This document shows positions 1-60,129 of a stretch of 63,344 nt of DNA, in pieces. Within the stretch, counting starts at the first letter, position 1, and the number at the start of each line of letters is the position of its first letter. The stretch covers positions 1 to 63,344 of IMG/VR virus record IMGVR_UViG_3300037200_000212. One strand, given 5' to 3'. The DNA comes from a virus. Lineage: Duplodnaviria; Caudoviricetes. The notes beneath the pieces are model-generated. The model saw only the letters and a list, made by a program, of their open reading frames with translations. It made no database searches and was not told the DNA's origin. The position numbers were made by a program, and so were the translations under genes.

Positions 1-89
1 CATCTGTTCAAGTTACGACTTTGAATAGCACTATTTCTGTTTCAACAGATGGTGGAAAATCACTCCAAGAAACATACAATCACTTGTAA
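1..89 (+). CDS. 3' end of an upstream virion-module gene (partial)
   Basis: Open frame from nt 3 (SVQVTTLNSTISVSTDGGKSLQETYNHL) ending TAA at 87-89, followed by GAGGA RBS of the next gene. Confidence 0.45.
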   Translation, partial: SVQVTTLNSTISVSTDGGKSLQETYNHL

Positions 90-107
90 GATTAGAGGAT
101 TAATAAA

Positions 108-749: not shown

Positions 750-783
750 TAAAGTTAACTATAAATTTTTATAATTAACTTTA
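750..783. repeat. AT-rich imperfect palindrome (possible terminator or protein-binding site)
   Basis: TAAAGTTAACTATAAA (750-765) / TTTATAATTAACTTTA (768-783), one mismatch, in the intergenic gap. Confidence 0.45.
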
Positions 784-805
784 AACTTTTAAGAGGATTT
801 TATAG

Positions 806-8149: not shown

Positions 8150-8565
8150 TGGCTCTTTTACCTTCATTTAGAAGATTAATGTCCCAGAATTTTGAGAAGC
8201 AATATCAAAATCTTATCAATACTCTTTCATTATCTTTAAATAATGGAATTCAAGTATTATATGATGCTTTGAATAATGGACTAACATTCCAAGATAATTT
8301 TGAGGCAACAATTGCCGATGTTACTTTGCAGGTAGATTCTACTGGAAAGCCAATACAAGGTGGAACTTTTACTTTGACTTTCACTTCCAATGTAGAAGGT
8401 GTATTTGTAATTATGGTTACAAATGTAAACAATCCAACTACTTATCCAACAGGCGCAGTGCAAGTATTTGGTCAACAAAGTAGTCAAACATATATCATCA
8501 ATAATGTCACGGGGTTACAGCCTAATACTTCATATAAGATTCGAATAGTAGCATTAGGATCATAA
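8149..8565 (+). CDS. Virion-associated hypothetical protein
   Basis: 138 aa, TAATG-coupled to the nozzle gene, beta-rich C-half. Confidence 0.5.
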   Translation: MALLPSFRRLMSQNFEKQYQNLINTLSLSLNNGIQVLYDALNNGLTFQDNFEATIADVTLQVDSTGKPIQGGTFTLTFTSNVEGVFVIMVTNVNNPTTYPTGAVQVFGQQSSQTYIINNVTGLQPNTSYKIRIVALGS

Positions 8566-8567
8566 AT

Positions 8568-8577
8568 TAACAACTAT
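8568..8577 (+). promoter_or_regulatory. Putative phage late-promoter motif TAACAACTAT
   Basis: Exact 10-mer in the gap before the ejection-protein operon; recurs at 55028, 60175 and (reverse) 60134. Confidence 0.55.
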
Positions 8578-8601
8578 ATAGTGAGAATATAAAGGTTTTT
8601 A

Positions 8602-10191
8602 ATGGCACAAACGATTCAAAGTTCTGATTTAGGTAATGATCAGCAGAACCAATTAAATCAACAAAGCCAAGGAAATCAGCAACAAGCTGGTCAGGGCGGA
8701 GCTACACCCACTTCTGGATCTACCGGATCAACCGGTAATGGTACTTCTGGTGGTAATAAATCAGCTTCTGGTGCAGAAAATCAAGCCCCAGGTGGTTATC
8801 AACAACAAACCGGTCAACCTCAACAACAATCAACTGTTACCAGTTATAATCCAAATACTCAACAAGGTTCTGGATATACAAATATTCAAAGTGTATTAAA
8901 TGCTAATAAGAATAATCAACTAGGTCAAACTGTTGGTAGTGGTATTCAGGGACAAACCAATCAGGCCCAACAAAATTTAAATCAATCTCAACAACAATTT
9001 AATCAACAAACAGCTGCAAATCAGGCTAATACTCAAGGTAATAGTCAACTCGTTCAAAATGTATTGGGTAACACTGCTCAGTATGCACCAGGTGGTGCTA
9101 ATCAATCTCAAGGACAACAGTTCCAACAATTGATGAGTGGACAATATGCGGGTCCAACACAATTAACTAATGCGCAACAAATTCAAAATCAAGCACAAAA
9201 TGTTAAACAACTTGGACAAGCTACTGGTAGTCAAGCTGGACAAATAGGTTTATTGCAACAATTTGTCGGAAGTCCTCAATACACTCAAGGTCAACAAAGT
9301 TTAGATCAATTATTATTAGGACAAACTGGTCAGCCCCAATTAGCTAATGCTAGACGAAGTGCTTTGCAATTACAAGGTCAAGTTGGTGGTGCTCTTGCTG
9401 GTGCTCAAGCTACGGGTCAACAACAACAAGCACAAGCTGCTAATTTTGGACAAAACGTTCAACAACAATTTGGTAATACTGTTGCAGGAATTAATACTGG
9501 TTTGCAACAACAAGCTCAACAACAACAAGCTGGAGCCAATGCTGCTTATCAACAAGCTGTAAGTGGAATTCAATCTGGGAATATTACTCCCCAACAAGCA
9601 GCGCTATTAGGTTTAACTCAAGGTGAACAAGTAACTGGAAATGCATTACAAAATGTTGGACAATATCTAACGCAAAATCCTAATCAAGCAACTGCACAAA
9701 ATGTTGCTTCTGCACAAAATTATGCACAACTTGATGCTTTAAGACAACTTGGTGGTACTTATACTCCTTCTGCAGCTCAAAACGTATTACAACAATATTC
9801 TGGTCAAGATCAAAATGCTAACCAGTTTCAAAATCAACAACAAATTACTGGCAATACTACTGGGTTTAATACAGCTAATCAAGGACAAATTGCAAATTAT
9901 AATTCATTAGTAAATCCTGCACAAGCTACTTTATCAGCTGCACAATCTAATTTAGCACAATTACAAGCTGCTGGAGCTTCTGCAAATGGTGGTGGTTCTG
10001 GTCCAAATATTGGTAATTTGATAAGACAAGCTGAAATTGGTGGATACCAACAACAAGTTGGTAACGATCAAACTGCTTATAATAATGCATTAGCTGCTGC
10101 AAATGCTGCAACAGGTGGATTACAAACAATTAATATTACTCCACAACAAGCTGCTCTTCAACAAATTGCTCAAAACCAGGGGAATTCATAA
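8602..10191 (+). CDS. Q/N/G-rich internal virion (ejection) protein
   Basis: 529 aa, extreme Gln/Gly/Ala bias with very few charged residues; lies after tail genes. Confidence 0.55.
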   Translation: MAQTIQSSDLGNDQQNQLNQQSQGNQQQAGQGGATPTSGSTGSTGNGTSGGNKSASGAENQAPGGYQQQTGQPQQQSTVTSYNPNTQQGSGYTNIQSVLNANKNNQLGQTVGSGIQGQTNQAQQNLNQSQQQFNQQTAANQANTQGNSQLVQNVLGNTAQYAPGGANQSQGQQFQQLMSGQYAGPTQLTNAQQIQNQAQNVKQLGQATGSQAGQIGLLQQFVGSPQYTQGQQSLDQLLLGQTGQPQLANARRSALQLQGQVGGALAGAQATGQQQQAQAANFGQNVQQQFGNTVAGINTGLQQQAQQQQAGANAAYQQAVSGIQSGNITPQQAALLGLTQGEQVTGNALQNVGQYLTQNPNQATAQNVASAQNYAQLDALRQLGGTYTPSAAQNVLQQYSGQDQNANQFQNQQQITGNTTGFNTANQGQIANYNSLVNPAQATLSAAQSNLAQLQAAGASANGGGSGPNIGNLIRQAEIGGYQQQVGNDQTAYNNALAAANAATGGLQTINITPQQAALQQIAQNQGNS

Positions 10192-10517
10192 TGTCTCTTT
10201 ATGGTCAATTTATTAAAGAAAGACTTAATAAAGAAATCATTGAAACTGAAAAGGGTTTTGTTACATATTATTTTATTGATGAAGGTTGTTATGCAGATGA
10301 TGTATATGTTTTGCCAGAATATAGAAGATCTAAAGAATCTTTTAATCTTGGTAAACAGGTAGAAGACATTGCAAGACAAAAAGGTTGTAAGAAATTATAT
10401 AGTTCCGTAGTACCTTCTACACCTAATTCAACGTTAAATCTTATGGGTTTAATTAAATTTGGATTTCGTTTAGATAGTACAGCTAATAATTTTATTTTAG
10501 TAGTTAAAGATTTATAA
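10191..10517 (+). CDS. GNAT-family acetyltransferase
   Basis: DVYVLPEYRRSK..F.LG acetyl-CoA-binding motif, C-terminal KFGF; sits among ejection genes as is common in podoviruses. Confidence 0.7.
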   Translation: MSLYGQFIKERLNKEIIETEKGFVTYYFIDEGCYADDVYVLPEYRRSKESFNLGKQVEDIARQKGCKKLYSSVVPSTPNSTLNLMGLIKFGFRLDSTANNFILVVKDL

Positions 10518-10531
10518 GAAGGAAATATATC

Positions 10532-11806
10532 ATGGGTAGTGCAGTTCAAGGAGTTAGTGGTTCAATAGGAGGAGTACTTGGAGGTATTGTAGGACAATCT
10601 CAAGTTGCTGGTGCCGAAGGAAATGCCGCTAATCAACAAGCAATCGCTAATCAGATAATGCAACAAATCGGTGCAGCGCCGGATGTATCAGCTCCTTTAA
10701 TATTACAACAATACAAACAAGCTGGTGTTTTGACTCCCGAAATGGAAGCTAACATTACAGCTCAAATGCCTCAGGCAATAGGTAGTGATCAAACAGCTGT
10801 AAATGCTCAAACTCAAGCTTTACAACAAATGCAACAAAGAGCTGCTGGTGGATTAAGTGCTGGGGATAGAGCCGCTTTAACTCAAGCCGGTTTACAAGCA
10901 CAAGGTGACGTTCAAGGACGCTTAGGATCTATTGCTCAAAATATGCAACAACAGGGTCTAAGTGATAGTGGATCAAAACTTGCCATGCAATTATCTGCTG
11001 CTCAAGGTGGACAAAATGCAGAAGCACAAAGTGCTGGTCAAATTGCACAACAAGCTCAGCAAGCAGCAATTCAAGCTACTGGTCAGGCAGCAGGTCTTGG
11101 TGGTCAAATTGAAAATCAACAATTTGGTCAAGGATTGGCTAATCAACAAGCTCAAACTCAAATGCAAAGATTTAATGTTCAAAATCAACTTGGTGTTCAA
11201 CAACAAAATACTCAAGCTACTAATCAAGCTCAAGCAGCTAATCTGGCAAATCAACAACAAATTGGTAATGCAAATGTTAGTGCTGGTAATCAACAGCTTT
11301 ATAATCAACAGCAACAAGCTATGAATCAGTATAATGCTAATAAGAACACTGCAGAAGCTCAATCAGGTGCAGCATCTCAATATGGTAATGCATTGAATAA
11401 CCAAGCACAACAAACCGCTCAAGGATATATGAATATGTTCGGAGGTGGTGGTCAAGCAGTAGGTGGAGCAGCTGCTGCGGCTAATGCTGCGGGTAGTTCT
11501 GGTTCTGGTGGGCAATCAGGTGGTGTAAATCAACAAGCTTTCAATGGAGCAGAAAATTACGACGAATCTACGTTCTGGTCTGGTGGAAATGTTGGTAATT
11601 ATAAAGCCGGTGGACACGTTCCGGGTCAAGCAAGAATGCCCGGAGATCATCCTGCCAATGATACTGTACATGCAAAATTAAGTCCAGGAGAAATAGTACT
11701 TCCTCGCACAATAGCTAAATCTGATCTTGGTAAAAAATTATTGAAACTGTTATCTGATCACCATGCAGTTCAAAATGAATTAGATAAACACGAAACAAAC
11801 GGATAA
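10532..11806 (+). CDS. Internal virion / DNA-ejection (pilot-like) protein
   Basis: Gly-rich hydrophobic N-terminus, Q/A-rich coiled coil, C-terminal YKAGGHVPG...NDTVHAKLSPGEIVLP motif. Confidence 0.6.
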   Translation: MGSAVQGVSGSIGGVLGGIVGQSQVAGAEGNAANQQAIANQIMQQIGAAPDVSAPLILQQYKQAGVLTPEMEANITAQMPQAIGSDQTAVNAQTQALQQMQQRAAGGLSAGDRAALTQAGLQAQGDVQGRLGSIAQNMQQQGLSDSGSKLAMQLSAAQGGQNAEAQSAGQIAQQAQQAAIQATGQAAGLGGQIENQQFGQGLANQQAQTQMQRFNVQNQLGVQQQNTQATNQAQAANLANQQQIGNANVSAGNQQLYNQQQQAMNQYNANKNTAEAQSGAASQYGNALNNQAQQTAQGYMNMFGGGGQAVGGAAAAANAAGSSGSGGQSGGVNQQAFNGAENYDESTFWSGGNVGNYKAGGHVPGQARMPGDHPANDTVHAKLSPGEIVLPRTIAKSDLGKKLLKLLSDHHAVQNELDKHETNG

Positions 11807-11809
11807 TTT

Positions 11810-13705
11810 ATGGACATCAAAAAACTTAAAAAATTATACGAAGAATATAAAAAGATCGGCCAACCAAAAGGTTATGATGAAGGCGGAAAAGTGCCAGAAC
11901 ATAACAAAAAGAATTTGAAAAAATTAAATGATTCTTTTGGAAAATTTCTTGAAGAAGAAAGTTCTGAAAAAGGTTATGATGAAGGTGGACCAGTTAGAGC
12001 TCCTTCTCCTCAAGAATTTTCTTCTGCAACTATGGAAGGATTTGAATCACCATCACAATCAACTTCAACATTCATACCTAGTGATGAAAAAACTCCTCCA
12101 AGTAGTAGTGCCAAAAACTTAGACAAAAATTCATCATCAGATGAAGCGGCAAAAAGAGCTGCTATAAGAAAAAGTTATGGTTATGATGATTCTGGAAATC
12201 AAGTTTCTGGTTATTCAAAAGGTGGTAAAGTTAAAGGATATGCTGATGGGACTGATGAAGGAGTTCCCGTTCAAGCCGAAGATTCTCAAAAGATGGATCT
12301 TGGTGATATTCCAATTAATGCTGCTCCTGCTGATGAATTACCTGATTACACAGCCGAAGAAGCTGATGCTAAGAAAGTTGTCGATCAAAAACAAGCCTTA
12401 AATGATGAAGCTGGTCAAGATGAGGAAGAACAACCAAAAGAAGAATCAAAAGCATCTGATAAAGAAGATCGAAAACCTGCTTCTCAAGATGAAGAAAAAG
12501 ATGAAACTGAAATAGAAGAACCAACAGATAAAGAACAAGCTGATATAGATCAAAGTGGATTTTCAGGAAAAGCTGAAGGCATAACTCCACCTCCTTCTCA
12601 ACAAGACCAATTAGCTGATGCAATGAGACAAAGAGATGAAAATATTGCTTTGCAAAATATGCAAAAAGGTGCTGCTAGAATTGGTGCTGGTTTATTGAAA
12701 ACAAATCCTGCTCAATCATTAGCAAGTATTGGTGAAAATGACAAATATGTTAATTTACCAGTTGAAGACTATGCAGCTAAAGTTGCAAATCAACAAAATG
12801 ATCCTACTAGTCCTATGAGTAAAGTTGTTTCTCAGTATTTAACTCAAAAAGGATTCAATCTTCCTCCTGGAACTTCTGCTGCAGATGCTTTCAAAGTAAT
12901 GCCTTTTCTTCAAAAGGATAATGCATTAAAAGTTCAATTACAAAAAGTAATGATGCAACAAGGCGGTGCTCAACAAAGGACAGAACTTACTAACAAAACT
13001 AAATCTGATATTGCAGAAGCTAATAGACAGGCTGAAAATCAAAGAGCACAAGCTAAGAATGCAATAGAACAACAAAAAGCAAATGCTCAAACAAGTTCTG
13101 CTGAAAGTAATAAAGAACTGAAATCTCAAGCATCTCAAGATAGAGCTTTGGCTCAATCAAAAACTATGTTAGAATCGGCAAGGGGCAATCCCGCTGCAGC
13201 TCAAGCTGAAAAAGATTTATATGCTACAAGTAAAATTGATAGTTTATTTAAACTTTATCCAGATCCTAATAAAATTCCTCAAGCTCAAGTCAATTTAGCA
13301 TTACAAGAAATTGCAAAAGTTGCTACCGGTGGAGTTCCAACGGGTCATGAAATGGATGCTTTACAACCCGGAACACCTGAAAGTAAATTACAACAACTTT
13401 ATGGTAAATTGCAAAATCAACCAACACCTGCAAATCTTGGTGATTATTTGAACGAATTTAAAAAATATACTGGGGCTTTAAAAGGTGATGCTCAAAAAGT
13501 CATTCAAGACAAATATGGTCGTATTATAGAATCTAGTAAAAAACAATTGGGTGATGACAATTATAATTCTCTTAAAGATCAGTACTTGAATCGTTTTAAT
13601 AGTCCAGAAGTTCATCCACAAGATTCTCAAGCACTTGATTGGGCGAAGAAAAATCCAAATGATCCAAGATCTGCTCAAATATTAAAGATTAATGGAATCC
13701 AATAA
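11810..13705 (+). CDS. Internal virion / ejection protein
   Basis: 631 aa; repeated GYDEGG/GYSKGG/GYADG motifs, acidic linker, helical C-half. Confidence 0.55.
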   Translation: MDIKKLKKLYEEYKKIGQPKGYDEGGKVPEHNKKNLKKLNDSFGKFLEEESSEKGYDEGGPVRAPSPQEFSSATMEGFESPSQSTSTFIPSDEKTPPSSSAKNLDKNSSSDEAAKRAAIRKSYGYDDSGNQVSGYSKGGKVKGYADGTDEGVPVQAEDSQKMDLGDIPINAAPADELPDYTAEEADAKKVVDQKQALNDEAGQDEEEQPKEESKASDKEDRKPASQDEEKDETEIEEPTDKEQADIDQSGFSGKAEGITPPPSQQDQLADAMRQRDENIALQNMQKGAARIGAGLLKTNPAQSLASIGENDKYVNLPVEDYAAKVANQQNDPTSPMSKVVSQYLTQKGFNLPPGTSAADAFKVMPFLQKDNALKVQLQKVMMQQGGAQQRTELTNKTKSDIAEANRQAENQRAQAKNAIEQQKANAQTSSAESNKELKSQASQDRALAQSKTMLESARGNPAAAQAEKDLYATSKIDSLFKLYPDPNKIPQAQVNLALQEIAKVATGGVPTGHEMDALQPGTPESKLQQLYGKLQNQPTPANLGDYLNEFKKYTGALKGDAQKVIQDKYGRIIESSKKQLGDDNYNSLKDQYLNRFNSPEVHPQDSQALDWAKKNPNDPRSAQILKINGIQ

Positions 13706-15512
13706 AATGGCTGATGATAGCTTCGATCCAGATAAATATTTAGCTGATAAAACTCAAAGTGGTAGTTTTGACCCAGATGCATATCTAAATGCAAAAGCTG
13801 CTGCTATTGCTCCTCCTACAGAAGATAAATCCAAAGACTGGTCCAAACTTCAATCTGCTGGTCAAGGTGCTCTTCAAGGAGCTACCGCTGGATTCTCTGA
13901 TGAATTAGGCGGAGTTGAAGGTGCTATTCAAGATAAGCTATTGGGTAATCCTAGTAAAAAGTCATTAAAAGATCTATATACCGAATATCGTGATTTGCAA
14001 AGAAATAGGAATAAGGAAGCTGAAACAGCCAATCCTGGTAGTTATCTAGCAGGTAACGTTGCTGGTGGAGTTGGAGCTGGAATAGCTGCTCCTGGTCTAT
14101 TAGCTCCTAAAACGGTCGCAGGAGCTGCAGGTCTTGGGGCTGCTGCTGGACTAGGAACTAGCGATGCAGACCTTACTAACCCTTCATTACAAAGCGTAGG
14201 ACAAGCTGCAAAAGATACTGCATTAGGTGCTGGATTAGGCGCTGCTGCTGGTGCTGTTGGTCAAAAAATTGGAAATGCTTTAAATCCTGAAAATTTAGAG
14301 ACCGCTAGTTCAAAATTAGCTTCAAGTGCTGTAGGACTAAAACCTTCAAAAGAATTAACTAGTGTTTATAATCCTTCGACTGGTCAGATGCAAAAGGGTT
14401 CAAATATCATAAAAGGTATAGGAACTACTGCTTTAGAAAATAATGCATTGCCAATGACTGGTGGAGCATCTGGAATATATGATAGTTCTTTGCAAGCTAT
14501 TGATAATAAATATAAACAGTTAAGCCCAGTTTTAGATCAAACTCAAAAAGTATTAGATCAAAATTTACCAGAATATACAGAAGCTGCTGGTCACTTAGGC
14601 GATAAAGCCGCTGATTTCTTGTATCAATTTAGGGATAGTTTATCTTCAGATCCGGACCAAGATAAAATAATGCAAAATATTGAACAAAAATATATGCCTT
14701 ACATTCAGAAGTTATCTGATAGCGATGGTAATCTTCAAGCTTTAAATACATTAAAACGAGGACTTCAAAGTAAAGCTACAGATCTTTCAGCAGCTGCTTA
14801 TGCCCAACCTACAAGTGATTTGAAGCCCGAAGCTGAATTTGTTAAACGTTTAGGTGGTGTTGTTAGACAACATATAGAAGATCTTGCAACGGCTGCAAAT
14901 CCAGGAGCTGGAGATCAAATTGGTTCTATTAATAAAGATCTAAGCAATCTATATACTTATAATGATGCAGCTAAAAAATTAATGGATAAAACTCCAAATG
15001 CATTAGCAAATAATGTAACAACTGGTGCTGGTGTAGGACTTGGATTCTTGGCTGGTGGACCCATTGGTGCAGCAGCAACTGGTATTGGAAAATTGGCTGT
15101 AGAAGCTGGTACTGGAAATCCTGTTAGTCGTTTGGCTAAAATCGGTGGAGCAAAAGCTTTAAATGCTGCTTCAAAAGCAATTGATACTCCTTCAGGACAA
15201 TTAGTTCAAAAAGCTGTACAACAAGTCCCACAACAAATTGTGGCAAATCCATTTGCACAAGAGAAATTACAAGGTAGTAGAAATTCTGCTCCAACTCAAG
15301 AAGCAACTAATCTTTCATCTTCACTTTATAATGCAACAGATGAATCATTAAAAGGAGTAGCTGATAAATTTAAAGATACTCCTGGTCTAGAATTTTATTC
15401 AGATCATTTAAATAAAGCTATTGATACTAATGATCAAGGTGAAAAGAATAGGGCAATTTTTTTAATAATGCAAAACCCAAAGACAAGGGCTTTAGTTTCG
15501 CCACAACAATAA
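13692..15512 (+). CDS. Internal virion / ejection protein (likely start ATG 13707)
   Basis: N-terminal FDPDxYL repeats, QGATAGFSDELGG motif, Gly/Ala-rich hydrophobic segments. Confidence 0.6.
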   Translation: MESNKMADDSFDPDKYLADKTQSGSFDPDAYLNAKAAAIAPPTEDKSKDWSKLQSAGQGALQGATAGFSDELGGVEGAIQDKLLGNPSKKSLKDLYTEYRDLQRNRNKEAETANPGSYLAGNVAGGVGAGIAAPGLLAPKTVAGAAGLGAAAGLGTSDADLTNPSLQSVGQAAKDTALGAGLGAAAGAVGQKIGNALNPENLETASSKLASSAVGLKPSKELTSVYNPSTGQMQKGSNIIKGIGTTALENNALPMTGGASGIYDSSLQAIDNKYKQLSPVLDQTQKVLDQNLPEYTEAAGHLGDKAADFLYQFRDSLSSDPDQDKIMQNIEQKYMPYIQKLSDSDGNLQALNTLKRGLQSKATDLSAAAYAQPTSDLKPEAEFVKRLGGVVRQHIEDLATAANPGAGDQIGSINKDLSNLYTYNDAAKKLMDKTPNALANNVTTGAGVGLGFLAGGPIGAAATGIGKLAVEAGTGNPVSRLAKIGGAKALNAASKAIDTPSGQLVQKAVQQVPQQIVANPFAQEKLQGSRNSAPTQEATNLSSSLYNATDESLKGVADKFKDTPGLEFYSDHLNKAIDTNDQGEKNRAIFLIMQNPKTRALVSPQQ

Positions 15513-49602: not shown

Positions 49603-49995
49603 TTAAATTCCTTCAATTAAATAAATTAAAGCTTCAATTTGACGGTCTTGCTCGGCTTTTTTAGCAGCATTAGTAGCATTAGCAGCATAAGCAGTAGCAT
49701 AAGCAGCATAATAAGCAGCATAAGCAGCAGCATCAGCAGCATCAGCAGCATAAGCAGCATAAGCAGCATCAGCAGCATCAGCAGAAAAACTGCAATCTAA
49801 TGCGAAAATCACCTTAGTATCGTTATCCGCGAGTCTTAGAACTACCCATAGTTTGTCTTTGTGCGTGATATTATCTAAAGCCAAGAATTGTCTTAGTGTA
49901 AAGTTTCTATGCTCGTAGTAATGTTTGTAGTTATCAAACCTATCTTCACACGGATCGAGTTTAGCTATTACGTCAGTATTGATCTTGAGTTTCAT
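49603..49995 (-). CDS. Protein with Ala/Tyr/Asp low-complexity repeat
   Basis: ADAADAAYAAYAA... encoded by GCT-rich 9-bp-type repeats (about 49660-49785). Confidence 0.65.
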   Translation of the reverse strand: MKLKINTDVIAKLDPCEDRFDNYKHYYEHRNFTLRQFLALDNITHKDKLWVVLRLADNDTKVIFALDCSFSADAADAAYAAYAADAADAAAYAAYYAAYATAYAANATNAAKKAEQDRQIEALIYLIEGI

Positions 49996-50166: not shown

Positions 50167-50406
50167 TTACTCACAATCCATATAATCTGGTTCATAATTC
50201 ATTACATAATGTTCTATAGCCCATTCAATACGTTTATAAAGACTTGGATTACCATCTTTAAAGTCATTTAAATGAACTTCTTTATTGCCCATCCAACATG
50301 ATGCTATTTCATATGTATCCATATCAAAGTCCACATCCATCATAACTTCATCATAACATTCTTCTTGTTCATTTAGGACATAAACCATAACTTCAACTGT
50401 GTGCAT
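50167..50406 (-). CDS. Acidic hypothetical protein
   Basis: GGAGGT RBS; first gene after a sigma54 promoter. Confidence 0.55.
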   Translation of the reverse strand: MHTVEVMVYVLNEQEECYDEVMMDVDFDMDTYEIASCWMGNKEVHLNDFKDGNPSLYKRIEWAIEHYVMNYEPDYMDCE

Positions 50407-50432
50407 ATCAACCTCCGATACATATTACTAAT

Positions 50433-50447
50433 GCATTGAGTGTGCCA
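50433..50447 (-). promoter_or_regulatory. sigma54 (-24/-12) promoter
   Basis: TGGCACACTCAATGC; IHF-like GATCAAAAGATTG at 50491-50503. Confidence 0.7.
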
Positions 50448-50501
50448 AGCTGGTTACAATTATATTTGATTTGGGGTTACAATTGGGTGACAATCTTTTG
50501 A

Positions 50502-50972
50502 TCAGATTTTGGAAGTATTTGAAATTGTTTGTAACTTGTTGGACATGTAAGCTTTTTGACACTTATCTAATTCTAATAATGCGTACTGCTCATTAGCATA
50601 TGATTCGTATTTGAAATTGATTTTATAGGTTTTTAAATAGTTCACGATTAGATCTAGTCTTTCACCCCAATGAGCTTCCATATCATTATCTTTTAAAGTC
50701 GCGACTAATTTATGGTCGGGAATTCCATTATCTTTGCAAAACATGATGCCAATTAAATTGACTTTGCAGATGGTTCCAGGAACTAATGGTTCATCTGTAA
50801 TCACGAATACATCTAATGGGTCGCCATCTTCACTTAGAGTTTCAGGTATGAATCCATAATTTGCGGGTATAAACTGATTTAAAGGCCTATCAAGCACTAA
50901 TGTATTGGTTTGTTTATCCAATTCATATTTGTATTTGGAACCAGAAGCAATTTCAATGAAAGCTTTTACCAT
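50502..50972 (-). CDS. ppa: Family I soluble inorganic pyrophosphatase
   Basis: KYELDK, LDR, PANYGFIP.T, DGDPLDV, D.K. Confidence 0.9.
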   Translation of the reverse strand: MVKAFIEIASGSKYKYELDKQTNTLVLDRPLNQFIPANYGFIPETLSEDGDPLDVFVITDEPLVPGTICKVNLIGIMFCKDNGIPDHKLVATLKDNDMEAHWGERLDLIVNYLKTYKINFKYESYANEQYALLELDKCQKAYMSNKLQTISNTSKI

Positions 50973-51063
50973 TGATCTTCTCTTTCATCTGGAAAACGAA
51001 ATATTTCAATTGCAATACACCAAACTGTTATTTCAAATATGAAAAGTATTAATAATGATAAAC

Positions 51064-51447
51064 TCATTGGTTTATTATACCGCAACTAGAAGTCACTGTA
51101 AAGTTGCAATTTGAACCGACCGCATTACTATTGTAATAACCAGGTGGAACTAATGTTAAAAATCCGTTATTCAAAGAATAATTAGCATATAAGTTATTAT
51201 CGACGCATATTCCTATTTCATTAAATTCATTGGGATAATTAGTAGTTCCAGGACAAAATTGAACTATTTGTAATTGAGTTCCGTTTGGAATACTCGATGT
51301 GGTTCCATCCGGACAAGTAATGACCGTATTGGTTCCATTTTGAACCACCGTACAAGTTTGTGGTGCATAACTAACGGTTGTTCCATTATCATTGGAACAT
51401 GCAATAATTAAAAGCGCGACTAATATCAATAGCTTATTCATTTTCAT
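51064..51447 (-). CDS. Cys-rich lipoprotein
   Basis: Lipobox LIIAC after a hydrophobic leader; several paired Cys. Confidence 0.6.
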   Translation of the reverse strand: MKMNKLLILVALLIIACSNDNGTTVSYAPQTCTVVQNGTNTVITCPDGTTSSIPNGTQLQIVQFCPGTTNYPNEFNEIGICVDNNLYANYSLNNGFLTLVPPGYYNSNAVGSNCNFTVTSSCGIINQ

Positions 51448-51853
51448 TTCCTTTAAACAATTTATGATTTGGGATTATTTTACGTAATGCCGATTCAGCT
51501 TCGCACGGACAACATATTGTACATGTTTCACAGCATCCTTGCATAGATATGAATTCGAGATATTCAATTGCAGTATTCAACATTGCTTGCAGTTCTTGTT
51601 CTCTAGTCATTTTAAACTCCTATATAATTTATATATCAAATAACCTGTTAAAGCACCAGGAATAATTATCAAACCTGTTATGAATAATACGTGTTTCATC
51701 TTACACACTTTATATGAACAACTTCCATATTGTATTGTTTTGAAGCCTTTTCCCATGCTTCTTTAGGACTATTTGCACGAAAGTTATTAAGAGTCGAACC
51801 ACCAAGAAATGTTATGCGATAAATATACATTGTAATCTCCTTTGTTATTATAC

Positions 51854-51880
51854 TATTCGGCACTATTACAAAAAACTTTA
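51854..51880 (-). promoter_or_regulatory. sigma28 (FliA)-type promoter
   Basis: TAAA-N15-GCCGAATA; precedes a 44-aa ORF (51696-51830) with AGGAG RBS. Confidence 0.7.
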
Positions 51881-52072
51881 GATATATTTTCGTATTTCTT
51901 CTTTATTTAATCCCGCTTGTGTTAATAGTCTTCTAACAAGTCCTTTTGAATGTTCCATATGATTCGGGACTGCTATTGTAATAGTTCCATTACTATATAT
52001 CATATGTCCATTAGCTCTTATCAGGACGAAGTTATGATCTTTTAGTATTCTTATTAATTCTTTGTTTTTCAT
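51878..52072 (-). CDS. hicA: HicA-like mRNA interferase
   Basis: ELIRILK..F..IR..GHMIY......VPNH....KGL.R.L.QAGL. Confidence 0.75.
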   Translation of the reverse strand: MKNKELIRILKDHNFVLIRANGHMIYSNGTITIAVPNHMEHSKGLVRRLLTQAGLNKEEIRKYI

Positions 52073-52096
52073 AATCACCTCTTATATATTACTAAT

Positions 52097-52111
52097 GCAT
52101 ATGTGATGCCA
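52097..52111 (-). promoter_or_regulatory. sigma54 (-24/-12) promoter upstream of hicA
   Basis: TGGCATCACATATGC; conserved AAACTTATGATCAATA (+ strand) at 52155-52170. Confidence 0.7.
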
Positions 52112-52264
52112 AATTTTAATCCCATTCTATTTTATTTGGCGACTAATAATTGTCAAACTTATGATCAATAATTGCAACTGTTTGGATTTACCGAATAGTT
52201 CTTAAACATATCAAAGAGTTCTACAATACAAATTTAATGTATCACTAATACACATAAAATATAT

Positions 52265-52312
52265 TTATACGCTTTCGCGTATAAGACATGTTTAATACGT
52301 TATCGCGTATAA
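52265..52312. repeat. Tandem palindromic 18-bp repeats
   Basis: ATACGCTTTCGCGTATAA (52267-52284) and ATACGTTATCGCGTATAA (52295-52312). Confidence 0.7.
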
Positions 52313-52900
52313 TTTATAACAATTAACGACATTCAATACAAAAACCATCGCCTGGACTTCCATATGAATCTTCTAATCTATTTCCACATTCACAAAAGGC
52401 ATTTTCATGGCATGAATCACAAAGGTTCAACCGTAAGCCTATATTTGCTTCGCATTCTTCGCAGAACTGTTCATGACCGTACAAAACACTAATCTTGCCC
52501 CAAACTAAGTGTCTAGTTTCACGTGACCGTCTGTGCAGTCTAAAGTGTTTAAATGAATGTTTTGAACTTAACGATGGTTCAATTATATATCCAAATAGCT
52601 TCATTTTGACTCCTTTGGAATAGATACAAATCTAACCACACGATTAAAACCTGATTCTTCGTTCCCTTTATTGCAAACACGTTCTGCAATTGCTTTTGAT
52701 TTATAATATTTGGCTCCAACGGCATTTCCGTAACTATATTGACCATCTCCATTCCATGCTGAGATTATATACGCATGTGTTCCAGCTTTAACTTGCTCTT
52801 TACGTGTATTTATGGTATCTTTTTTATAATCAGGACAAATAAGTTTATCATAACCGTGAAATTCACATTGATTCATATAATCTCCTATTAGTTAATATAA

Positions 52901-53137
52901 TTAACAACCAAATAGTTTATTGAGTCTATTAGCTGAACCTTTACCTTTTGATTCAACAATACATACTACATCATGATTCTGAATATACTTTACAATCTTA
53001 TTGATTATGGTATTAGAACAGCCATCATTCATGATAACGATCTCTTCAGTGTTTAATGATTCAAGAGCTTGGTCAATATGAGCTTTAATTTCAGAGAATT
53101 TACTGATATATTCGTTTACTTCTATTGTGATACTCAT
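52901..53137 (-). CDS. Hypothetical early protein
   Basis: AGGAG RBS; first gene after a sigma54 promoter. Confidence 0.5.
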   Translation of the reverse strand: MSITIEVNEYISKFSEIKAHIDQALESLNTEEIVIMNDGCSNTIINKIVKYIQNHDVVCIVESKGKGSANRLNKLFGC

Positions 53138-53174
53138 TTTAATCTCCTTGTTAATGTTGATATATACTACTATT

Positions 53175-53189
53175 GCATGAGCAGTGCCA
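53175..53189 (-). promoter_or_regulatory. sigma54 (-24/-12) promoter
   Basis: TGGCACTGCTCATGC; AAACTTATGGTCAATA (+ strand) at 53232-53247. Confidence 0.7.
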
Positions 53190-53381
53190 AGTTTTGACGC
53201 TTTAAACAGTCAATGCCGAGTCAAAATTGCAAAACTTATGGTCAATATTCACAAAACCTTGAAACCATTAGTATTAACTTAAACATGTTAGTATTCTAAC
53301 GGTTACTATAATTATTCGCGACTAGAACCAATACAAACGATATAGTATATAATGCAGATAACAAGTCTATAGCTAATAGCA

Positions 53382-53522
53382 TTAGAAATACCTCACAATG
53401 GCTTGATCACCTAAGATAGTACGTAAGACATGCAAGGTGTTAATGACATCAAAGTAATCATTTGAATCACTGTGTTTAATCCATTGACCATTGATATCAT
53501 GTTTATACCATATTGAATACAT
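53382..53522 (-). CDS. 46-aa small protein, paralog A
   Basis: MYSIWYKHDINGQWIKHSDSNDYFDVINTLHVLRTILGDQAIVRYF; 26/46 identical to 54073-54213. Confidence 0.65.
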   Translation of the reverse strand: MYSIWYKHDINGQWIKHSDSNDYFDVINTLHVLRTILGDQAIVRYF

Positions 53523-53536
53523 ATAAACCCCTTTAG

Positions 53537-53914
53537 TTAGATAACAGAATAATAGTCAGTACCATCTAAAGTCCAGTTATCAAGTTTAGAAGCTTCTAAT
53601 GCACTAATGCTAGTAAAGTTACCTAACTTAGTGGTAAGACCTGTTTTAATGAAATAAAGACTAGCTATCCTATTTTCGTCAACTATGAGTATTGACTCTT
53701 GGTTATAGTTAACAGCTAGTTCTAATACGTCATTTAAAGCGTTATCAGTTGAAGCATCCACTACATAGGAATTCTCTTGAACTCCATTGTATGAGCCTAA
53801 TACGCTTTTAAAACCATATTGAGAGAGTTCATTCTCAACATGTTGTTTATCATATATTCCAGCTGGTGTTCCTGTTTCAATACTGAATATTACAACTCTT
53901 TTTTTAACGTTCAT
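53537..53914 (-). CDS. SAM lyase (T3 SAMase-like) anti-restriction protein
   Basis: VIFS...GSYNGVQENSYVV...LAVNYNQESILIVD...A.L...LGNF...D.WT.DG pattern. Confidence 0.6.
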   Translation of the reverse strand: MNVKKRVVIFSIETGTPAGIYDKQHVENELSQYGFKSVLGSYNGVQENSYVVDASTDNALNDVLELAVNYNQESILIVDENRIASLYFIKTGLTTKLGNFTSISALEASKLDNWTLDGTDYYSVI

Positions 53915-53943
53915 TTGATACCTCGTTTCATTGTTACTATATA

Positions 53944-53970
53944 TTATCGGCGACTAATTAGAAAACTTTA
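53944..53970 (-). promoter_or_regulatory. sigma28 (FliA) promoter, perfect consensus
   Basis: TAAA-N15-GCCGATAA upstream of the SAM lyase-like gene. Confidence 0.8.
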
Positions 53971-54072
53971 ACAAATAATCATTTATTTAATAGTTTATAG
54001 GTTGAATACCATATAAAAGCTATTAGATAAGAGAATACTAAACAATCTATTGCTAGAAGCATGTATGACTCC

Positions 54073-54213
54073 TTAAAAGTATTTAATAATGGCTTTAGAT
54101 CCTAATATTGACCGTAATTGATATATAATGTTTAATACATCATAAAAGTTATTAGAGTCTTTAAATTTGGTCCATTGAGCATTCATTTTTCGCTTATACC
54201 AAATTGAGTACAT
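54073..54213 (-). CDS. 46-aa small protein, paralog B
   Basis: MYSIWYKRKMNAQWTKFKDSNNFYDVLNIIYQLRSILGSKAIIKYF; GGAG RBS. Confidence 0.65.
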   Translation of the reverse strand: MYSIWYKRKMNAQWTKFKDSNNFYDVLNIIYQLRSILGSKAIIKYF

Positions 54214-54414
54214 ATTAGCTCCAATTGTATGATTTAAGTTTACGTGGATGTTTTACTCGAATAAAGTCTTTAATGATTTTTACTATATATTTCATAAATA
54301 CCTCAATTACTGTTAAGAGCAGTTGATAATCCGCAGAATACTAAGATAAGAGCTATGAGAGTCATGTTACTATCCTTTGTTTGAGTCATTCATTGATTAC
54401 AATTATATATCATT

Positions 54415-54429
54415 GCAATCACAATGCCA
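54415..54429 (-). promoter_or_regulatory. sigma54 (-24/-12) promoter
   Basis: TGGCATTGTGATTGC; IHF consensus TATCAATAAGTTA at 54472-54484. Confidence 0.75.
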
Positions 54430-54718
54430 ATTCTCCAAACACTATATGAGACATAGTAACCCAAAAGTGTATAACTTATTGATACAACTTCATAACTATA
54501 TAATTTAATTGATTATAACATAGACATATGCAAAAGATAGACAGTAGTTTATTTTTATAATACACTACTCCATTACAGTCATACATATGATTACAAATGC
54601 ATGTATATGATGAACAACATGCTCGCTCTCGCTTTCAGCTTCGCTTGCATGTGAATCATTACCATTGATGGTATCATACTTTTTCTTAAAAGTCAATACA
54701 GTATTTTAATAATTCTTT

Positions 54719-54868
54719 TGGTATAATATTTGCAAGTAATATTAATTAGTTGCAACAATCATGCCTGATCATGCCATTAGGACATAGCATGATATTTGCA
54801 TGTAGTATGTGTTGGTATATCTATTGCATATGCATAGAGTGTGCCATGGTCTTTGGCATGGCTATTGC
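54719..54868. promoter_or_regulatory. Array of sigma54 -24/-12 boxes in both orientations
   Basis: +54719 TGGTATAATATTTGC; -54752..54766 AGGCATGATTGTTGC; +54785 TAGCATGATATTTGC (degenerate); +54813 TGGTATATCTATTGC; -54832..54846 TGGCACACTCTATGC; +54854 TGGCATGGCTATTGC. Confidence 0.7.
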
Positions 54869-55027
54869 AGGGGATACCGGGGGGTAGGTTACTCTTGGCT
54901 GGGATGGATTTAAATTATGTTGGACAGAGAATTTTTTAAAAATACAGTATAGTAACAACACCCTCAAAATGACCTATATGATATATTAATATCATGATCA
55001 TAATATAGTAACCTATTATTCGAAGAA

Positions 55028-55037
55028 TAACAACTAT
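55028..55037 (+). promoter_or_regulatory. TAACAACTAT motif, 4 nt before ATG 55042
   Basis: Exact copy of the recurrent motif. Confidence 0.55.
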
Positions 55038-55596
55038 GTGTATGAGTAATGAAAATATAGTAACACCTTATAAACTCTATGATCCAAATTTAGTGGATAA
55101 TTTATCTCATTTACCCAAAATGTGTATCTTTGGGCTTATTGATGAAGTTAATAAAACCATATTAATTTATCGTACCAAGAATATAGTAACAGCTTTAAAT
55201 CGAATTATTAGACAATATGAATATAGTAACAAAAAGATATTAAAACTACCATTAGTTATTATTGAGGACATTAAAAGTAGTAACAATCTTTGGATTAGAT
55301 ATAGTTATTGGAATAGGTATTATAGTAACATGGGCTATAACATATTTAATAAATCCAAATATAACATAGCTTATAAGGTCCATAAAGAGGTTTATAGGGA
55401 CTTTAGATCCATAAAGAGTAGATCGATGCTTTTCTATGTTTCAATCGTTTCTAGGCGGGGTAAGGGCTTTGTAGTGGGTATCTTTGATAAGGTCAATCTA
55501 ATGGATGAATTTGTTTCTCAATCTTATCCTAATGGTGCTATAAATAATATAATATATAGTGATAATAGTCTTACTAGGGAATATTATGCAAAATAA
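55036..55596 (+). CDS. Hypothetical protein (likely start 55042)
   Basis: Long ORF, first gene after the strand switch. Confidence 0.55.
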   Translation: MCMSNENIVTPYKLYDPNLVDNLSHLPKMCIFGLIDEVNKTILIYRTKNIVTALNRIIRQYEYSNKKILKLPLVIIEDIKSSNNLWIRYSYWNRYYSNMGYNIFNKSKYNIAYKVHKEVYRDFRSIKSRSMLFYVSIVSRRGKGFVVGIFDKVNLMDEFVSQSYPNGAINNIIYSDNSLTREYYAK

Positions 55597-56336
55597 TGTT
55601 ACATTCTACTTTTGTCTTGCAGTGTATGGATCTATTACAATAGTTAGTATATTCCTTATGCTTATTATTATATGTGCTAATGCTTATAAGAGTGTTAGTA
55701 GTGCCCGGGGTAAAAAGAAACCACATTTGAGGATTGTTAAATAATGGGCTTTCTATTTGTGATAATGTTTATGTTAATAGTTTCTACATGTGTTCAGGCT
55801 TCAAAGATCAAATCAGTTCCGCCTTGTAAGAGTCATTTATGGATCATTAGAGAGAATAAGATGCTTTGTTCTACTTGTTTAAAAGTTGCAGGTGGGAGGT
55901 GAAAAGGCTTAGTGATAAGGACTTTTTATTATTAGGGAAGACGTTTCTTTATTCATTGAAGTATAGATCTGATTTCATAGTGGATTCTTCTTATCCAATG
56001 AATAATCTCTATTGGATGAAATTGACTAGGTTTGGTATTGACGATAGAGGAATTAGTATGTTAAACTTACGTTATGTGGAATACCAAGATGATTTCTTTC
56101 GTATCAAACCTTTTAAAAAAGATTAGAGGTCCTGTGGGTGAAAAGTTGTTTTGTTACATTTGTGATCAATGTAGATTAGTTATAGGTCAAGGTGGACATG
56201 GGGAATATTATCAGATTAATGGTGGATATTATTGTTCCTTGGGTTGTTATAATGAATTTACTAAAAAAGTAATGGTTCCCAAAGCGAAAAAAATTAGTAG
56301 AAAGACTAAGAAGAAGATTCCCAAAAGGAAAAAGAA

Positions 56337-56678
56337 GTGAAAAAGATTAGCTATGCAAACATAGAAACTAAAGCTCTTAATATGACCATTGGTGAATCCT
56401 ATGGTTTGGGTGATTATACATTAAAAGATGAGCTCGACAAATATGGTGAAGATATCATTGTAGCCCAATATAATTTGAGAACACATGAAGGAGCTAGTGA
56501 ACCTTATTTGGAATGGTTTAGAGCTTGGACAAAAAGTTATGCAATGTGTTTGATTTCATCAGGATTTGGTGACGAAGTAATATTAGGTTTAAAAAGAGAA
56601 ATACCAGAGGAATTAAATGGACGATCTAAAGAAAAAAGAAAAAGAGCAAACCGCAGCAATCGCAAAACTAGTAAGTGA
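56337..56678 (+). CDS. Hypothetical protein
   Basis: 113 aa ORF within a chain of overlapping small genes. Confidence 0.45.
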   Translation: MKKISYANIETKALNMTIGESYGLGDYTLKDELDKYGEDIIVAQYNLRTHEGASEPYLEWFRAWTKSYAMCLISSGFGDEVILGLKREIPEELNGRSKEKRKRANRSNRKTSK

Positions 56679-57161
56679 AAATGCTCATCACGAACAAAGT
56701 GGTTACAGTCAGCCTTATAGATGTGCAAATTGTAATGAAAGAGTAAATTATACTTTCATTCTTCCTTTTTTAAAGGCCCGAGGAATTTGTCCCGATTGCT
56801 GGCATAAAGAAGGTGAAGATGAATAATTATAATAACAAATATTATTTCATTCCACCAGAAGGTGTAGTACATGTTAAGGAATATCATCCACAAACAAGTT
56901 CGTCTATTGGATTACTTGAATTAGACGATTGGGCTGGACCTGGAGTTTATAAACTTTGTCATTATTTTTTGAATAATGGAAATATGATGGTAGAAGTTAA
57001 TGATATATATTTAAAATCATTAACGCAAGGTAATAGCTATTCGTTTAAAAATGAATTGGTTAAAGAAATGAATAACGCAATAGATGAAGTCAAAAAATTA
57101 AATTTTTATAAAAGAAATTTTAAAGATACTCCATTAAGATGGAGTATGATAAGGAAATATT

Positions 57162-58921: not shown

Positions 58922-59325
58922 GGTAGAAACACACGACTTGGTCTATCAGCTCTTGTTCCAATATCTAAATGAACCCAATATTTAGTATGATTTAGATCTT
59001 CTAACCATAAATTATATTTTTTGAGTAAATCTGGCCTTGACGCTACTAATTTTCCTAAATTTTGTTGTTCATTATCTTTTAAATCTATCGCTAAACCAAT
59101 CATATGATAACTTCGTTTAGCTGCATTTGTGGTCTTATTATTAATAGCTGGTGGACGAAAACCACTACTTACAATTGCTTCCTCTATACCTAATTCAGTT
59201 AAAAAAGTATTTATAATATCTAACAATTTTATTGCATTATTTTTTACTTCATCTGTCCAATCTAATGGATATAATTTATCTCTACCCATAGCATATTGTT
59301 CTAATGCTATTAATTTATTTTCCAT
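58918..59325 (-). CDS. Peptidase M15 endolysin
   Basis: SSGFRP..N, S.H..G.A.D, WVHLD. Confidence 0.8.
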   Translation of the reverse strand: MENKLIALEQYAMGRDKLYPLDWTDEVKNNAIKLLDIINTFLTELGIEEAIVSSGFRPPAINNKTTNAAKRSYHMIGLAIDLKDNEQQNLGKLVASRPDLLKKYNLWLEDLNHTKYWVHLDIGTRADRPSRVFLP

Positions 59326-59986
59326 AAATTCTCCAATAAAATCCTTTATATAATGCATTATTTTTTATAGCTCTATATATAGAATCTCTTTTATAATTAT
59401 TATCTTTTAATTCATTATTATTTTTATAAAAACAAGACATATTTGATTCTGGGTTTATTGCCAAATATGCAGTTTTTCTTGATTCCCAACTTTTTAATCT
59501 ACTTTCATGTTGTTTAATTCTATAAGAAGAATCATTCCAATTTTCTTTTCTTGATTTACTTATTTTTTTTCTATATTCTTCTTTAGACCAATTATTTTTG
59601 CTATATTGACTTATTAAGTTTCTTAATTCTGGATTAATATTATATATTTCTTTATGTTTTAAAATTAGTTCTTCTGAAAATTTTCCACCACTATTACCAC
59701 CTAATTGTAAATTATAACCATTTGGACTTACAGTATTTAGAGTTTTAATCCAATATCTTTCTTTTTCATTCAATTCTTCTATATTATTTGCTATATCTAA
59801 TATAGTCCATTTAAAATTTTCTTTACCATATTTCAATATTGCTTGCTTTAATAGAAATGGAACTTTGGATTTCTTTTTTAAATTATAAGGTTTAAAATGA
59901 TCTCGTATACGTTTATCTGTTTTTTGAACAGTTTGACCTATATAGTGTTTATTAGTTATAATACATGTGATTTTATAAATAGTCAT
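59315..59986 (-). CDS. GIY-YIG homing endonuclease
   Basis: IYKIT...YIGQT...R...H, E..WI...NGYN...GG. Confidence 0.85.
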   Translation of the reverse strand: MTIYKITCIITNKHYIGQTVQKTDKRIRDHFKPYNLKKKSKVPFLLKQAILKYGKENFKWTILDIANNIEELNEKERYWIKTLNTVSPNGYNLQLGGNSGGKFSEELILKHKEIYNINPELRNLISQYSKNNWSKEEYRKKISKSRKENWNDSSYRIKQHESRLKSWESRKTAYLAINPESNMSCFYKNNNELKDNNYKRDSIYRAIKNNALYKGFYWRIYGK

Positions 59987-60129
59987 TTTATCTTATTATA
60001 CTTCTTTATTATAATCTTTTCAACTTTAATCATATATCCGCAAATGGAACATTTAAACCAAGTATTTCCTTTGACTAATTCCATATAAATCGCACACTTA
60101 GGACACGTTGAGGAAGTCTTTTTTAGCAT
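59983..60129 (-). CDS. 48-aa Zn-ribbon protein (below the ORF-track cutoff)
   Basis: MLKKTSSTCPKC...FKCSICG...; ATGA-coupled to GIY-YIG; ATG 4 nt after the TAACAACTAT motif. Confidence 0.55.
   Translation of the reverse strand: MLKKTSSTCPKCAIYMELVKGNTWFKCSICGYMIKVEKIIIKKYNKIK

Follow-up and report, generated by a model that had tools for sequence, protein, structure and literature searches.

A conserved array of sigma-54-like boxes, possibly a divergent promoter cluster, where the gene arms of a metagenomic phage diverge

Boxes between the two gene arms

An array of short boxes resembling sigma-54 (-24/-12) promoter elements lies in the phage record IMGVR_UViG_3300037200_000212, between its leftward and its rightward genes. 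The window, that is, the whole stretch of DNA that was analysed, is the complete IMG/VR record of 63,344 b, which is of the linear class, has about 31% G+C and is 74% complete according to CheckV; the source runs containing its DNA carry the labels peat or permafrost metagenome. Between 16 and 54.4 kb, the minus strand encodes a primase-helicase, a DNA polymerase, a ribonucleotide reductase and numerous small genes, and the plus strand (60,978 to the end, and 1-15,512) encodes the terminase, a P22-like portal and large virion proteins. Gene direction changes between these two arms at 54,370-55,035, with the minus-strand genes on the left and the plus-strand genes on the right, and the only open reading frames (ORFs) overlapping this interval are unconserved ones of 36-48 amino acids (aa). 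The cumulative GC skew has its low point at 53-54 kb, near the divergence, and among the minus-strand genes near the switch are those for an S-adenosylmethionine (SAM) lyase (Pfam match), a HicA-like protein and an inorganic pyrophosphatase.

An earlier sequence-only reading had described five exact GG-N10-GC boxes and one degenerate copy in mixed orientation at this place, beside a G-rich tract and at the switch from minus-strand to plus-strand genes. All six boxes were located exactly where they had been put, and the setting was as described. The leftmost box, TGGTATAATATTTGCA (54719-54734, plus strand), marks the left edge of a strain-conserved module and forms a wide face-to-face pair with the leftward box AGGCATGATTGTTGCA (54751-54766, minus strand), an inverted repeat in which 18 nt separate the GC doublets. 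The degenerate TAG variant TAGCATGATATTTGCA (54785-54800, plus strand) points rightward and is followed by a tight face-to-face pair, whose left half is TGGTATATCTATTGCA (54813-54828, plus strand) and whose right half is TGGCACACTCTATGCA (54831-54846, minus strand). The last box, TGGCATGGCTATTGCA (54854-54869, plus strand), matches the consensus at 11/11 positions and aims directly at the conserved G-rich tract GGGGATACCGGGGGGTAGGTTACT (54870-54893, plus strand), which follows it without a gap. A seventh box had been overlooked, namely TGGCATTGTGATTGCA (54414-54429, minus strand), which also scores 11/11. The first leftward ORF has its Shine-Dalgarno sequence (SD) and ATG 48 nt downstream of this box, and an 11/12 sigma-70-like promoter, TTGGCA-17-TATAAT (54402-54430), overlaps the box. 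Altogether, 456 nt hold three leftward and four rightward boxes ahead of early-type genes (SAM lyase, HicA-like protein and small ORFs).

The bare GG-N10-GC pattern occurs 151 times in the window and, being common, is no proof by itself. The strict form TGGYAY-N5-TTGCW is found at four sites only, all within 54414-54869, against an expectation of 0.28 from shuffled sequences, none of which (0/100) reached four. When sites were required to match at least 10 of the 11 positions of TGGCAY-N5-TTGCW and to keep both GG and GC, 12 were counted in the window, nine of them in 50,432-54,869, compared with 1.83 +/- 1.41 (maximum 8) in 300 Markov-1 simulations. Within 500 nt, up to six such sites are found (simulated mean 1.54, maximum 3), so that the box density lies well above chance.

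Outside the array, three further boxes on the minus strand stand singly ahead of genes: TGGCACTGCTCATGCA (53174-53189), 37 nt ahead of the ATG of ORF 52901-53137; TGGCATCACATATGCA (52096-52111), 24 nt ahead of the ATG of the HicA-like ORF; and TGGCACACTCAATGCA (50432-50447), 26 nt ahead of the ATG of ORF 50167-50406. Together with the box at 54414, all four single boxes are on the strand of the gene that they precede, at 24-48 nt from its ATG, and an SD is present at most of the downstream genes. The same promoter geometry, with the box ahead of a transcription unit and oriented with it, recurs in related contigs at L010 1619 and 3152, L012 2654 and 3494, and L183 1328 and 2773. Judged by position and sequence, the four single boxes look like promoters, and the early sigma-54-type promoters that the sequence-only reading had surmised appear to exist in this gene-proximal form. 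Transcription starting about 12 nt past the GC doublet would give short leaders with the SD retained; were the boxes read by sigma-70, with a -10 element farther downstream, the SD would be lost.

Sigma-70 was considered as a general reader of the boxes and rejected, being retained for 54414 alone. With TTGGCA taken as the -35 element, a good -10 hexamer at 17 nt was found just for this box, and the others need spacers of 15 or 18 nt and inconsistent hexamers; moreover, a sigma-70 reading leaves the conserved TTGCA unexplained. Directly upstream of the box at 52096 lies another 11/12 sigma-70-like promoter (52129-52156).

Conservation in relatives and occurrence in other viral contigs

Relatives were sought with the terminase and with the product of ORF186 (the first rightward gene), as well as with a profile built from homologues of the latter; records whose terminase is 36-41% identical were added. 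The resulting eleven lineages are that of the window (W, with its strain L052), L010, L012, L015, L005, L054, L060, L182 (G338), L183 (G336), L184 (G332) and L185 (G324), and terminase identity across them ranges from 36 to 100%. A box cluster adjoins a G-rich tract in 11/11 lineages, and at least one face-to-face pair, consisting of a rightward box, 1-5 nt and a leftward box, is present in 10/11. The exception is L060, a 1.8-kb fragment with a single box aimed at the G-tract.

The spacing of the GG and GC doublets, exactly 10 nt apart in the TGGCAC-N5-TTGCW frame, is retained in the relatives as well. In the array regions of seven lineages, TGC stands at offset 12 in 26 of 36 TGGYA words and at each other offset from 5 to 25 in 0-5 of them; in the comparison DNA (window 1-50,000), offset 12 carries TGC in 2 of 157 words. 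Two outcomes that the sequence-only reading had named as refuting, a box density no higher than in shuffled DNA and a GG/GC spacing not conserved in relatives, were accordingly not observed. W and L010 are collinear box by box, the TAG variant included (L010 3520), and over six homologous boxes 58/66 box positions are identical, compared with 11/30 spacer positions. Box positions are thus kept while spacers drift, which indicates selection on the boxes and not on the spacers. Within 54,713-54,900 the strain L052 differs from W at three positions, none of which is a box consensus position, and the DNA left of the array (54540-54710) has diverged between the two. In contigs of other runs, 54,713-56,777 is retained at about 97% identity. 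The DNA of the array is clearly functional.

The left flank of the array is mosaic. Two runs replace 54543-54713 by 183 different letters, and the array starts exactly at the conserved side of this junction; at a second junction, 54369/54423, the contig of one run carries 1,572 extra letters. Farther left, paralogous 46-aa ORFs (53382-53522 and 54073-54213, minus strand) flank the SAM-lyase gene (53537-53914), and contigs of three other runs omit 53526-54221, a cassette apparently lost via recombination between the paralogues.

The composition of positions that were not used in site selection bears on the reader of the boxes. Among 59 boxes of the phage family, the seventh base is a purine in 53 (p=1.8e-10), and the base preceding TGG is T or C in 41; after GG, C is found 35 times, T 23 times and A once. 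In the table of Salmonella sigma-54 sites located by chromatin immunoprecipitation (PMC3844500), our own count over the 29 intergenic sites listed gave a purine at the seventh base in 29/29 and C after GG in 29/29. In addition, the box consensus is constant over the eleven lineages, and the neighbouring iteron switches from TATAGTAACA to TCTAGAAACA in the distant ones. Constant boxes beside a changing iteron are expected of a host factor with fixed specificity, and sigma-54 is favoured as the reader because it is the known factor with this specificity; recognition by the sigma-54 holoenzyme can be inferred on this basis.

When viral contigs were scanned for the face-to-face pair, at least 120 stretches (L061-L180) matched, compared with one for a mirrored control of the same composition, which suggests that the arrangement is not peculiar to one contig. 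The 120 listed loci total 1.01 Mb of 27-60% G+C, with crude ORF calls (first ATG, length cut-offs), and the following counts hold among these matches. Pairs number 171, of which 128 fall outside ORFs of at least 80 aa, and the strict box occurs 666 times, compared with 11 times for its reversed form. Of 664 boxes, 599 have C after GG, 626 a purine as the seventh base and 469 a T before TGG. Matches to the terminase or portal of the window were confined to L118 and L167; L178 is part of the L012 contig, and eight more loci have one of three other ORFs in common with the window. By the crude ORF calls, divergent junctions hold 29 of 79 inter-ORF pair clusters, compared with 128 of 954 junctions overall. 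At a divergent junction in the unrelated contig L106, 1.8 kb hold 19 boxes, five of them in tandem about 26 nt apart. The array appears, by motif and arrangement, to belong to a broader and apparently undescribed class of viral elements.

In another unrelated contig, L103, the genes at 2055-4560 have no SD, and each minus-strand intergenic gap contains two plus-strand boxes 26 nt apart, followed by CTGCCATTTTGGCAG hairpins with a T-run; these doublets would form tiny units antisense to the genes. Searches by blastn of the array region, and of two arrays from unrelated contigs, gave no match among cultured phages. The face-to-face pair was found in none of 401 bacterial genomes of one phylum, an amount of DNA too small for a rate comparison. 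Full-text literature searches found no account of phage sigma-54 box arrays or face-to-face pairs, in line with the statement of the sequence-only reading that no description was known; what they returned were the single -24/-12 promoters of phage YuA.

Neighbouring elements and the rest of the record

In 11/11 lineages a G-rich tract is found no farther than about 30 nt from the boxes, with a length varying between about 6 and 12 G, and a box is aimed into it in W, L060, L182, L184 and L185. Between this tract and the first iteron is an AT-rich AATTTTTTAAAAATA stretch, followed by six direct copies of the iteron-like TATAGTAAC(A) at 54948-55329 (plus strand), two upstream of ORF186 and four inside it. 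The word TATAGTAAC occurs 11 times in the window, with 0.64 expected. The four copies inside ORF186 occupy two different reading frames, pointing to selection at the DNA level. In the distant lineages L005 and L019, TCTAGAAACA-like copies replace TATAGTAAC. The core of the block formed by G-tract, AT-rich stretch and iterons is alignable in four lineages, and the adjacent protein is merely 31-62% identical. From these features, the G-tract/iteron block looks like an origin or another DNA-processing site. Copies of TATAGTAAC also stand on the minus strand at 53302 and 53933, after TAGTCGCS-type motifs ahead of two early genes.

ORF186 (55036-55596, plus strand) adjoins the array in relatives too. 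Its N-terminus gives a weak GIY-YIG-like match (I-TevI catalytic domain, E=0.029), and no initiator family was recognised in it. A structured RNA at 54700-54960 was considered and dropped, the fold z score of -2.17 being accounted for by the palindromes, and Rfam recognised no family in the window or three relatives. The region left of the array in L005 (2350-2600) is GC-rich, ORF-poor and structured-RNA-like, with no Rfam match at the gathering threshold.

The early region also holds an element of another promoter class, TAAAGTTT-N11-GCCGATAA (53944-53970, minus strand), situated 30 nt ahead of the SAM-lyase ATG. It agrees at 16/16 positions with the sigma-28 (FliA) consensus TAAAGTTT-N11-GCCGATAA given in Table 1 of PMC2859248, and its core form, TAAA-N15-GCCGATAA, appeared in 0/60 simulations. 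The early region thus seems, from its promoter-like elements, to use more than one host sigma factor, and a sigma-28 consensus promoter in the same region makes reliance on alternative host sigma factors plausible. Weaker copies of this type precede genes with SD and ATG at 51854-51880 (minus strand, 14/16) and, as read by eye, at L010 2591-2617 (minus strand, 15/16).

Elsewhere in the record, a free-standing GIY-YIG gene (59315-59986, minus strand), probably a homing endonuclease by the clear motif read by eye in its translation, is antisense to its neighbours, the small plus-strand genes on one side and the terminase genes on the other, with an 11/12 sigma-70-like promoter of its own (59995-60023). 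The early gene 51064-51447 (minus strand) encodes a lipoprotein-type signal (…LLIIAC|S) and is a candidate for a superinfection-exclusion protein. ORF 49603-49995 (minus strand) is a low-complexity Ala/Asp/Tyr repeat (ADAADAAYAAY...), of which both other frames are open as Leu/Met and Ser/Ile repeats. E1_FCCH was the sole domain detected in the 1896-aa virion protein, and no tRNA genes were found in the window.

In a search for clues to the host, the nearest cellular homologues of the phage pyrophosphatase are 34-47% identical and belong to a mixture of Alphaproteobacteria, Bdellovibrionales and others. Among cultured phages, the terminase is best matched by a phage of Silvanigrella aquatica (30%), in which no comparable box array was found, and then by T5-like phages (about 25%). 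The terminase was not found in the 301 genomes searched in the phylum of a Bdellovibrionales metagenome-assembled genome, and an endolysin atlas look-up matched viral clusters only.

With regard to transcription proteins, PF04552 was not found in the window, and Sigma70_r2, Sigma70_r4 and Sigma54_DBD were found neither in the window nor in two near-complete relatives. A phage RNA polymerase was likewise not detected in these three, the PF00940 search being uninformative as its control matched no genome. These negatives are in keeping with boxes read by a host polymerase.

Possible roles of the array and comparison with known systems

Considering the conserved boxes, their extended consensus and the geometry of the single copies, the array may well be a cluster of tandem and overlapping divergent early promoters of the sigma-54 class, read by host sigma-54 RNA polymerase; the chances of this are put at about even, and it is the best reading available, yet unproven. 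The phage would then be a lytic phage of roughly 85 kb with the array as its central early control region. The leftward boxes at 54831, 54751 and 54414, followed by those at 53174, 52096 and 50432, would drive the minus-strand early genes, and the rightward boxes at 54719, 54785, 54813 and 54854 would drive transcription over the G-tract/iteron block into ORF186 and on to the small genes preceding the terminase gene. Each face-to-face pair would be an overlapping divergent promoter with its -12 elements 1-5 nt apart, and the boxes at 54719, 54785 and 54854 (rightward) and at 54751 and 54414 (leftward) would be extra tandem copies. The mixed orientation would follow from the placing of leftward and rightward boxes face to face. 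With starts presumed about 12 nt past the GC doublet, those of a pair are predicted some 20 nt apart, such that the 5' parts of its two transcripts would overlap over about that length, and a pair would hold one polymerase at a time. Activation would presumably come from a host enhancer-binding ATPase, and the G-tract with its iterons may serve as a transcription-activated origin. The sequence-only reading had argued that there are more sites than one promoter needs and had proposed, as possibilities, a decoy for host polymerase, a loading platform for polymerase-assisted genome entry or a feeder for the early sigma-54 promoters. A decoy or loading platform does not follow from the number of sites, since leftward and rightward units, together with single boxes pointing with their genes, account for it, and for the array of the window neither of these two ideas is needed.

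Several observations weigh against the promoter cluster. Sigma-54 depends on an AAA+ activator, yet no activator domain (PF00158, of enhancer-binding proteins) was found in the window or in 4/4 related records, two of them 96-100% complete, nor in 38/38 other box-bearing viral records searched, and the searches with pyrophosphatase, terminase and endolysin did not pin down the host. In 23/59 family boxes, T stands where C would be canonical after GG. The rule that a box precedes a gene fails for some boxes of G338, where long ORFs contain three of the four extra single boxes and no start codon closely follows the fourth, and for the unrelated L103, whose box doublets are oriented against the flanking genes; among the 120 loci of the scan there is no preferred distance from box to next ORF. 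The box at 54414 doubles as an 11/12 sigma-70 promoter, and part of its signal may serve sigma-70. Finally, paired polymerases exclude each other and each transcribes through the site of its partner, which is odd for simple promoters.

Some of these points would be met if the boxes were not promoters but operators or upstream sites for another sequence-specific protein, such as an architectural protein of the host or an early regulator of the phage, with a convergent likeness to sigma-54 sites and with each face-to-face pair serving as the palindromic operator of a dimer or tetramer. The pairs are indeed imperfect palindromes, the TAG variant is conserved in W and L010, and the L103 boxes, upstream of genes and reversed, resemble upstream activator sites; the T for C substitutions and the missing activator gene in every phage examined fit as well. 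However, the centre-to-centre distance within pairs varies between 34 and 38 bp, unlike that of a fixed dimer operator, and lone boxes oriented with genes exist. The same motif is found in contigs of 27-60% GC, mostly of unrelated phages, where the site of a phage binder should drift as the iteron does, and the unselected positions (purine at the seventh base, T before TGG, and C after GG in 90% of the wider set) reproduce the extended sigma-54 consensus. Another binding protein is accordingly regarded as unlikely. Quite improbable is a non-productive sink or platform, on which the boxes would trap sigma-54 holoenzyme in closed complexes that seldom fire, starving host sigma-54 regulons (stress or defence) after phage DNA replication or parking polymerase near the true promoters, as in the decoy and feeder ideas of the sequence-only reading. 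The boxes do outnumber transcription units, face-to-face members are too close for joint occupancy, the activator gene is again missing, and the unrelated L106 is crowded with tandem boxes; a remark in PMC3844500 on Salmonella, that secondary sites near a promoter may hasten the promoter search, points the same way. Nevertheless, the seven boxes of the array are few compared with the cellular sigma-54 pool before replication, the gene-proximal copies show promoter geometry, and a pure decoy requires neither orientation nor conserved adjacency to a G-tract. In L106 and L103, simple promoters cannot account for every box, so that a sink or platform is a candidate there.

A main role in DNA replication or packaging is rather improbable too. 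Boxes, G-tract, AT-rich stretch and iterons would here form an origin, with an R-loop primer made by transcripts that enter the G-tract, or, in a variant, a recognition region for terminase or the genome terminus, with gene expression secondary. The skew minimum and the divergence of the gene arms coincide here, yet GC skew tracks gene orientation and is hence not independent. The six iterons, lying partly within the adjacent gene and in two frames, the AT-rich stretch alignable across four lineages and the box aimed into the G-rich tract in five lineages agree with this role, although ORF186 is without a recognised initiator family and the gene-proximal boxes 1-4 kb away are left unexplained. 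The short contigs L011, L019 and L055 start at or just past the poly-G and an 82-kb contig (G001) ends within the array; however, assembly commonly breaks at homopolymers and repeats, G002, a closed circle, continues through the region, and G336 and G338, of the direct-terminal-repeat class, have the array 6-15 kb from their record ends. A genome terminus at the G-tract was rejected as a separate candidate, the contig ends being equally explained by such breaks. Two further contigs, L008 and L009 (start at about window 57824), have identical terminases and both end 3,154 nt upstream of the terminase, by breaks or as real ends.

To return to the promoter cluster, sigma-54 promoters are silent until an ATPase activator remodels the polymerase, and for this reason one would not expect them ahead of the first genes of a lytic phage without an activator of its own. 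If sigma-54 reads the boxes, the phage family couples its early programme to the signalling state of the host, and the sigma-28-type promoter alongside may hint at a broader tie to flagellar or stress sigma factors. A wider proposal, advanced with little confidence, is that face-to-face pairs and arrays are a widespread viral module for capturing host sigma-54 polymerase. Unrelated phages without their own activator would hold the polymerase in closed complexes at bidirectional pairs, and a host ATPase, triggered for example by envelope or RNA damage on infection, would gate early transcription and the adjacent G-tract/iteron origin too; alternatively, the captured pool would disarm sigma-54-dependent host responses. 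If this were true, the array of the window would be the first recognised member of its class. The question raised is whether phages commonly recruit or sequester sigma-54 polymerase.

Among known systems, the bacterial sigma-54 promoters of the Salmonella regulon, as tabulated in PMC3844500, resemble the boxes in the TGGCAY-N5-TTGCW sequence, in GG and GC doublets 10 nt apart, in the purine at the seventh base and in a position ahead of genes on the gene strand. The differences are that the phage has neither a gene for an enhancer-binding ATPase nor recognisable upstream activator sites, that T frequently stands for C after GG, and that the phage boxes crowd together in face-to-face pairs and in tandem, whereas bacteria have one per operon. 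Phage YuA of Pseudomonas (GenBank AM749441; also treated in PMC10914365) provides a precedent for sigma-54-class promoters in a phage; it is likewise a phage without an RNA polymerase of its own, and its GenBank record annotates three '-24/-12 consensus' promoters as active in a promoter trap. These are three separate single promoters in the structural-gene region, with no cluster, no face-to-face pairs and no placement at the early divergence point, and the likeness is judged by annotation.

The G-tract/iteron block invites comparison with origins primed by R-loops, given that putative promoters directed into a G-rich non-template tract, with an AT-rich stretch and iterons, stand here at the divergence of the gene arms. 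Transcription-activated or R-loop-primed origins include ColE1 RNA II, T7 phi1.1A/B, T4 oriF/oriG and mitochondrial conserved sequence block (CSB) II. The promoters of the window would differ from these in needing a sigma-54 activator, and the G-tract varies in length. For 54414, where an 11/11 sigma-54 box coincides with an 11/12 sigma-70 promoter and the -35 element of the latter overlaps the -24 element, the counterpart is glmY, with its overlapping sigma-54 and sigma-70 promoters. The sigma-54 site of glmY is listed in the Salmonella table (PMC3844500). At 54414, in contrast to glmY, the predicted starts are about 9 nt apart, and this is the sole box of the window with such an overlap.

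The stacking of putative host-polymerase promoters within a few hundred bp before the first genes recalls the early regions of T7 and T5, as does an anti-restriction gene among these first genes, here a SAM lyase like that of T3. The T7 A1-A3 and the T5 early promoters are tandem, strong sigma-70 promoters that all point in one direction, whereas the boxes of the window are of the sigma-54 class, face both directions and are interdigitated.

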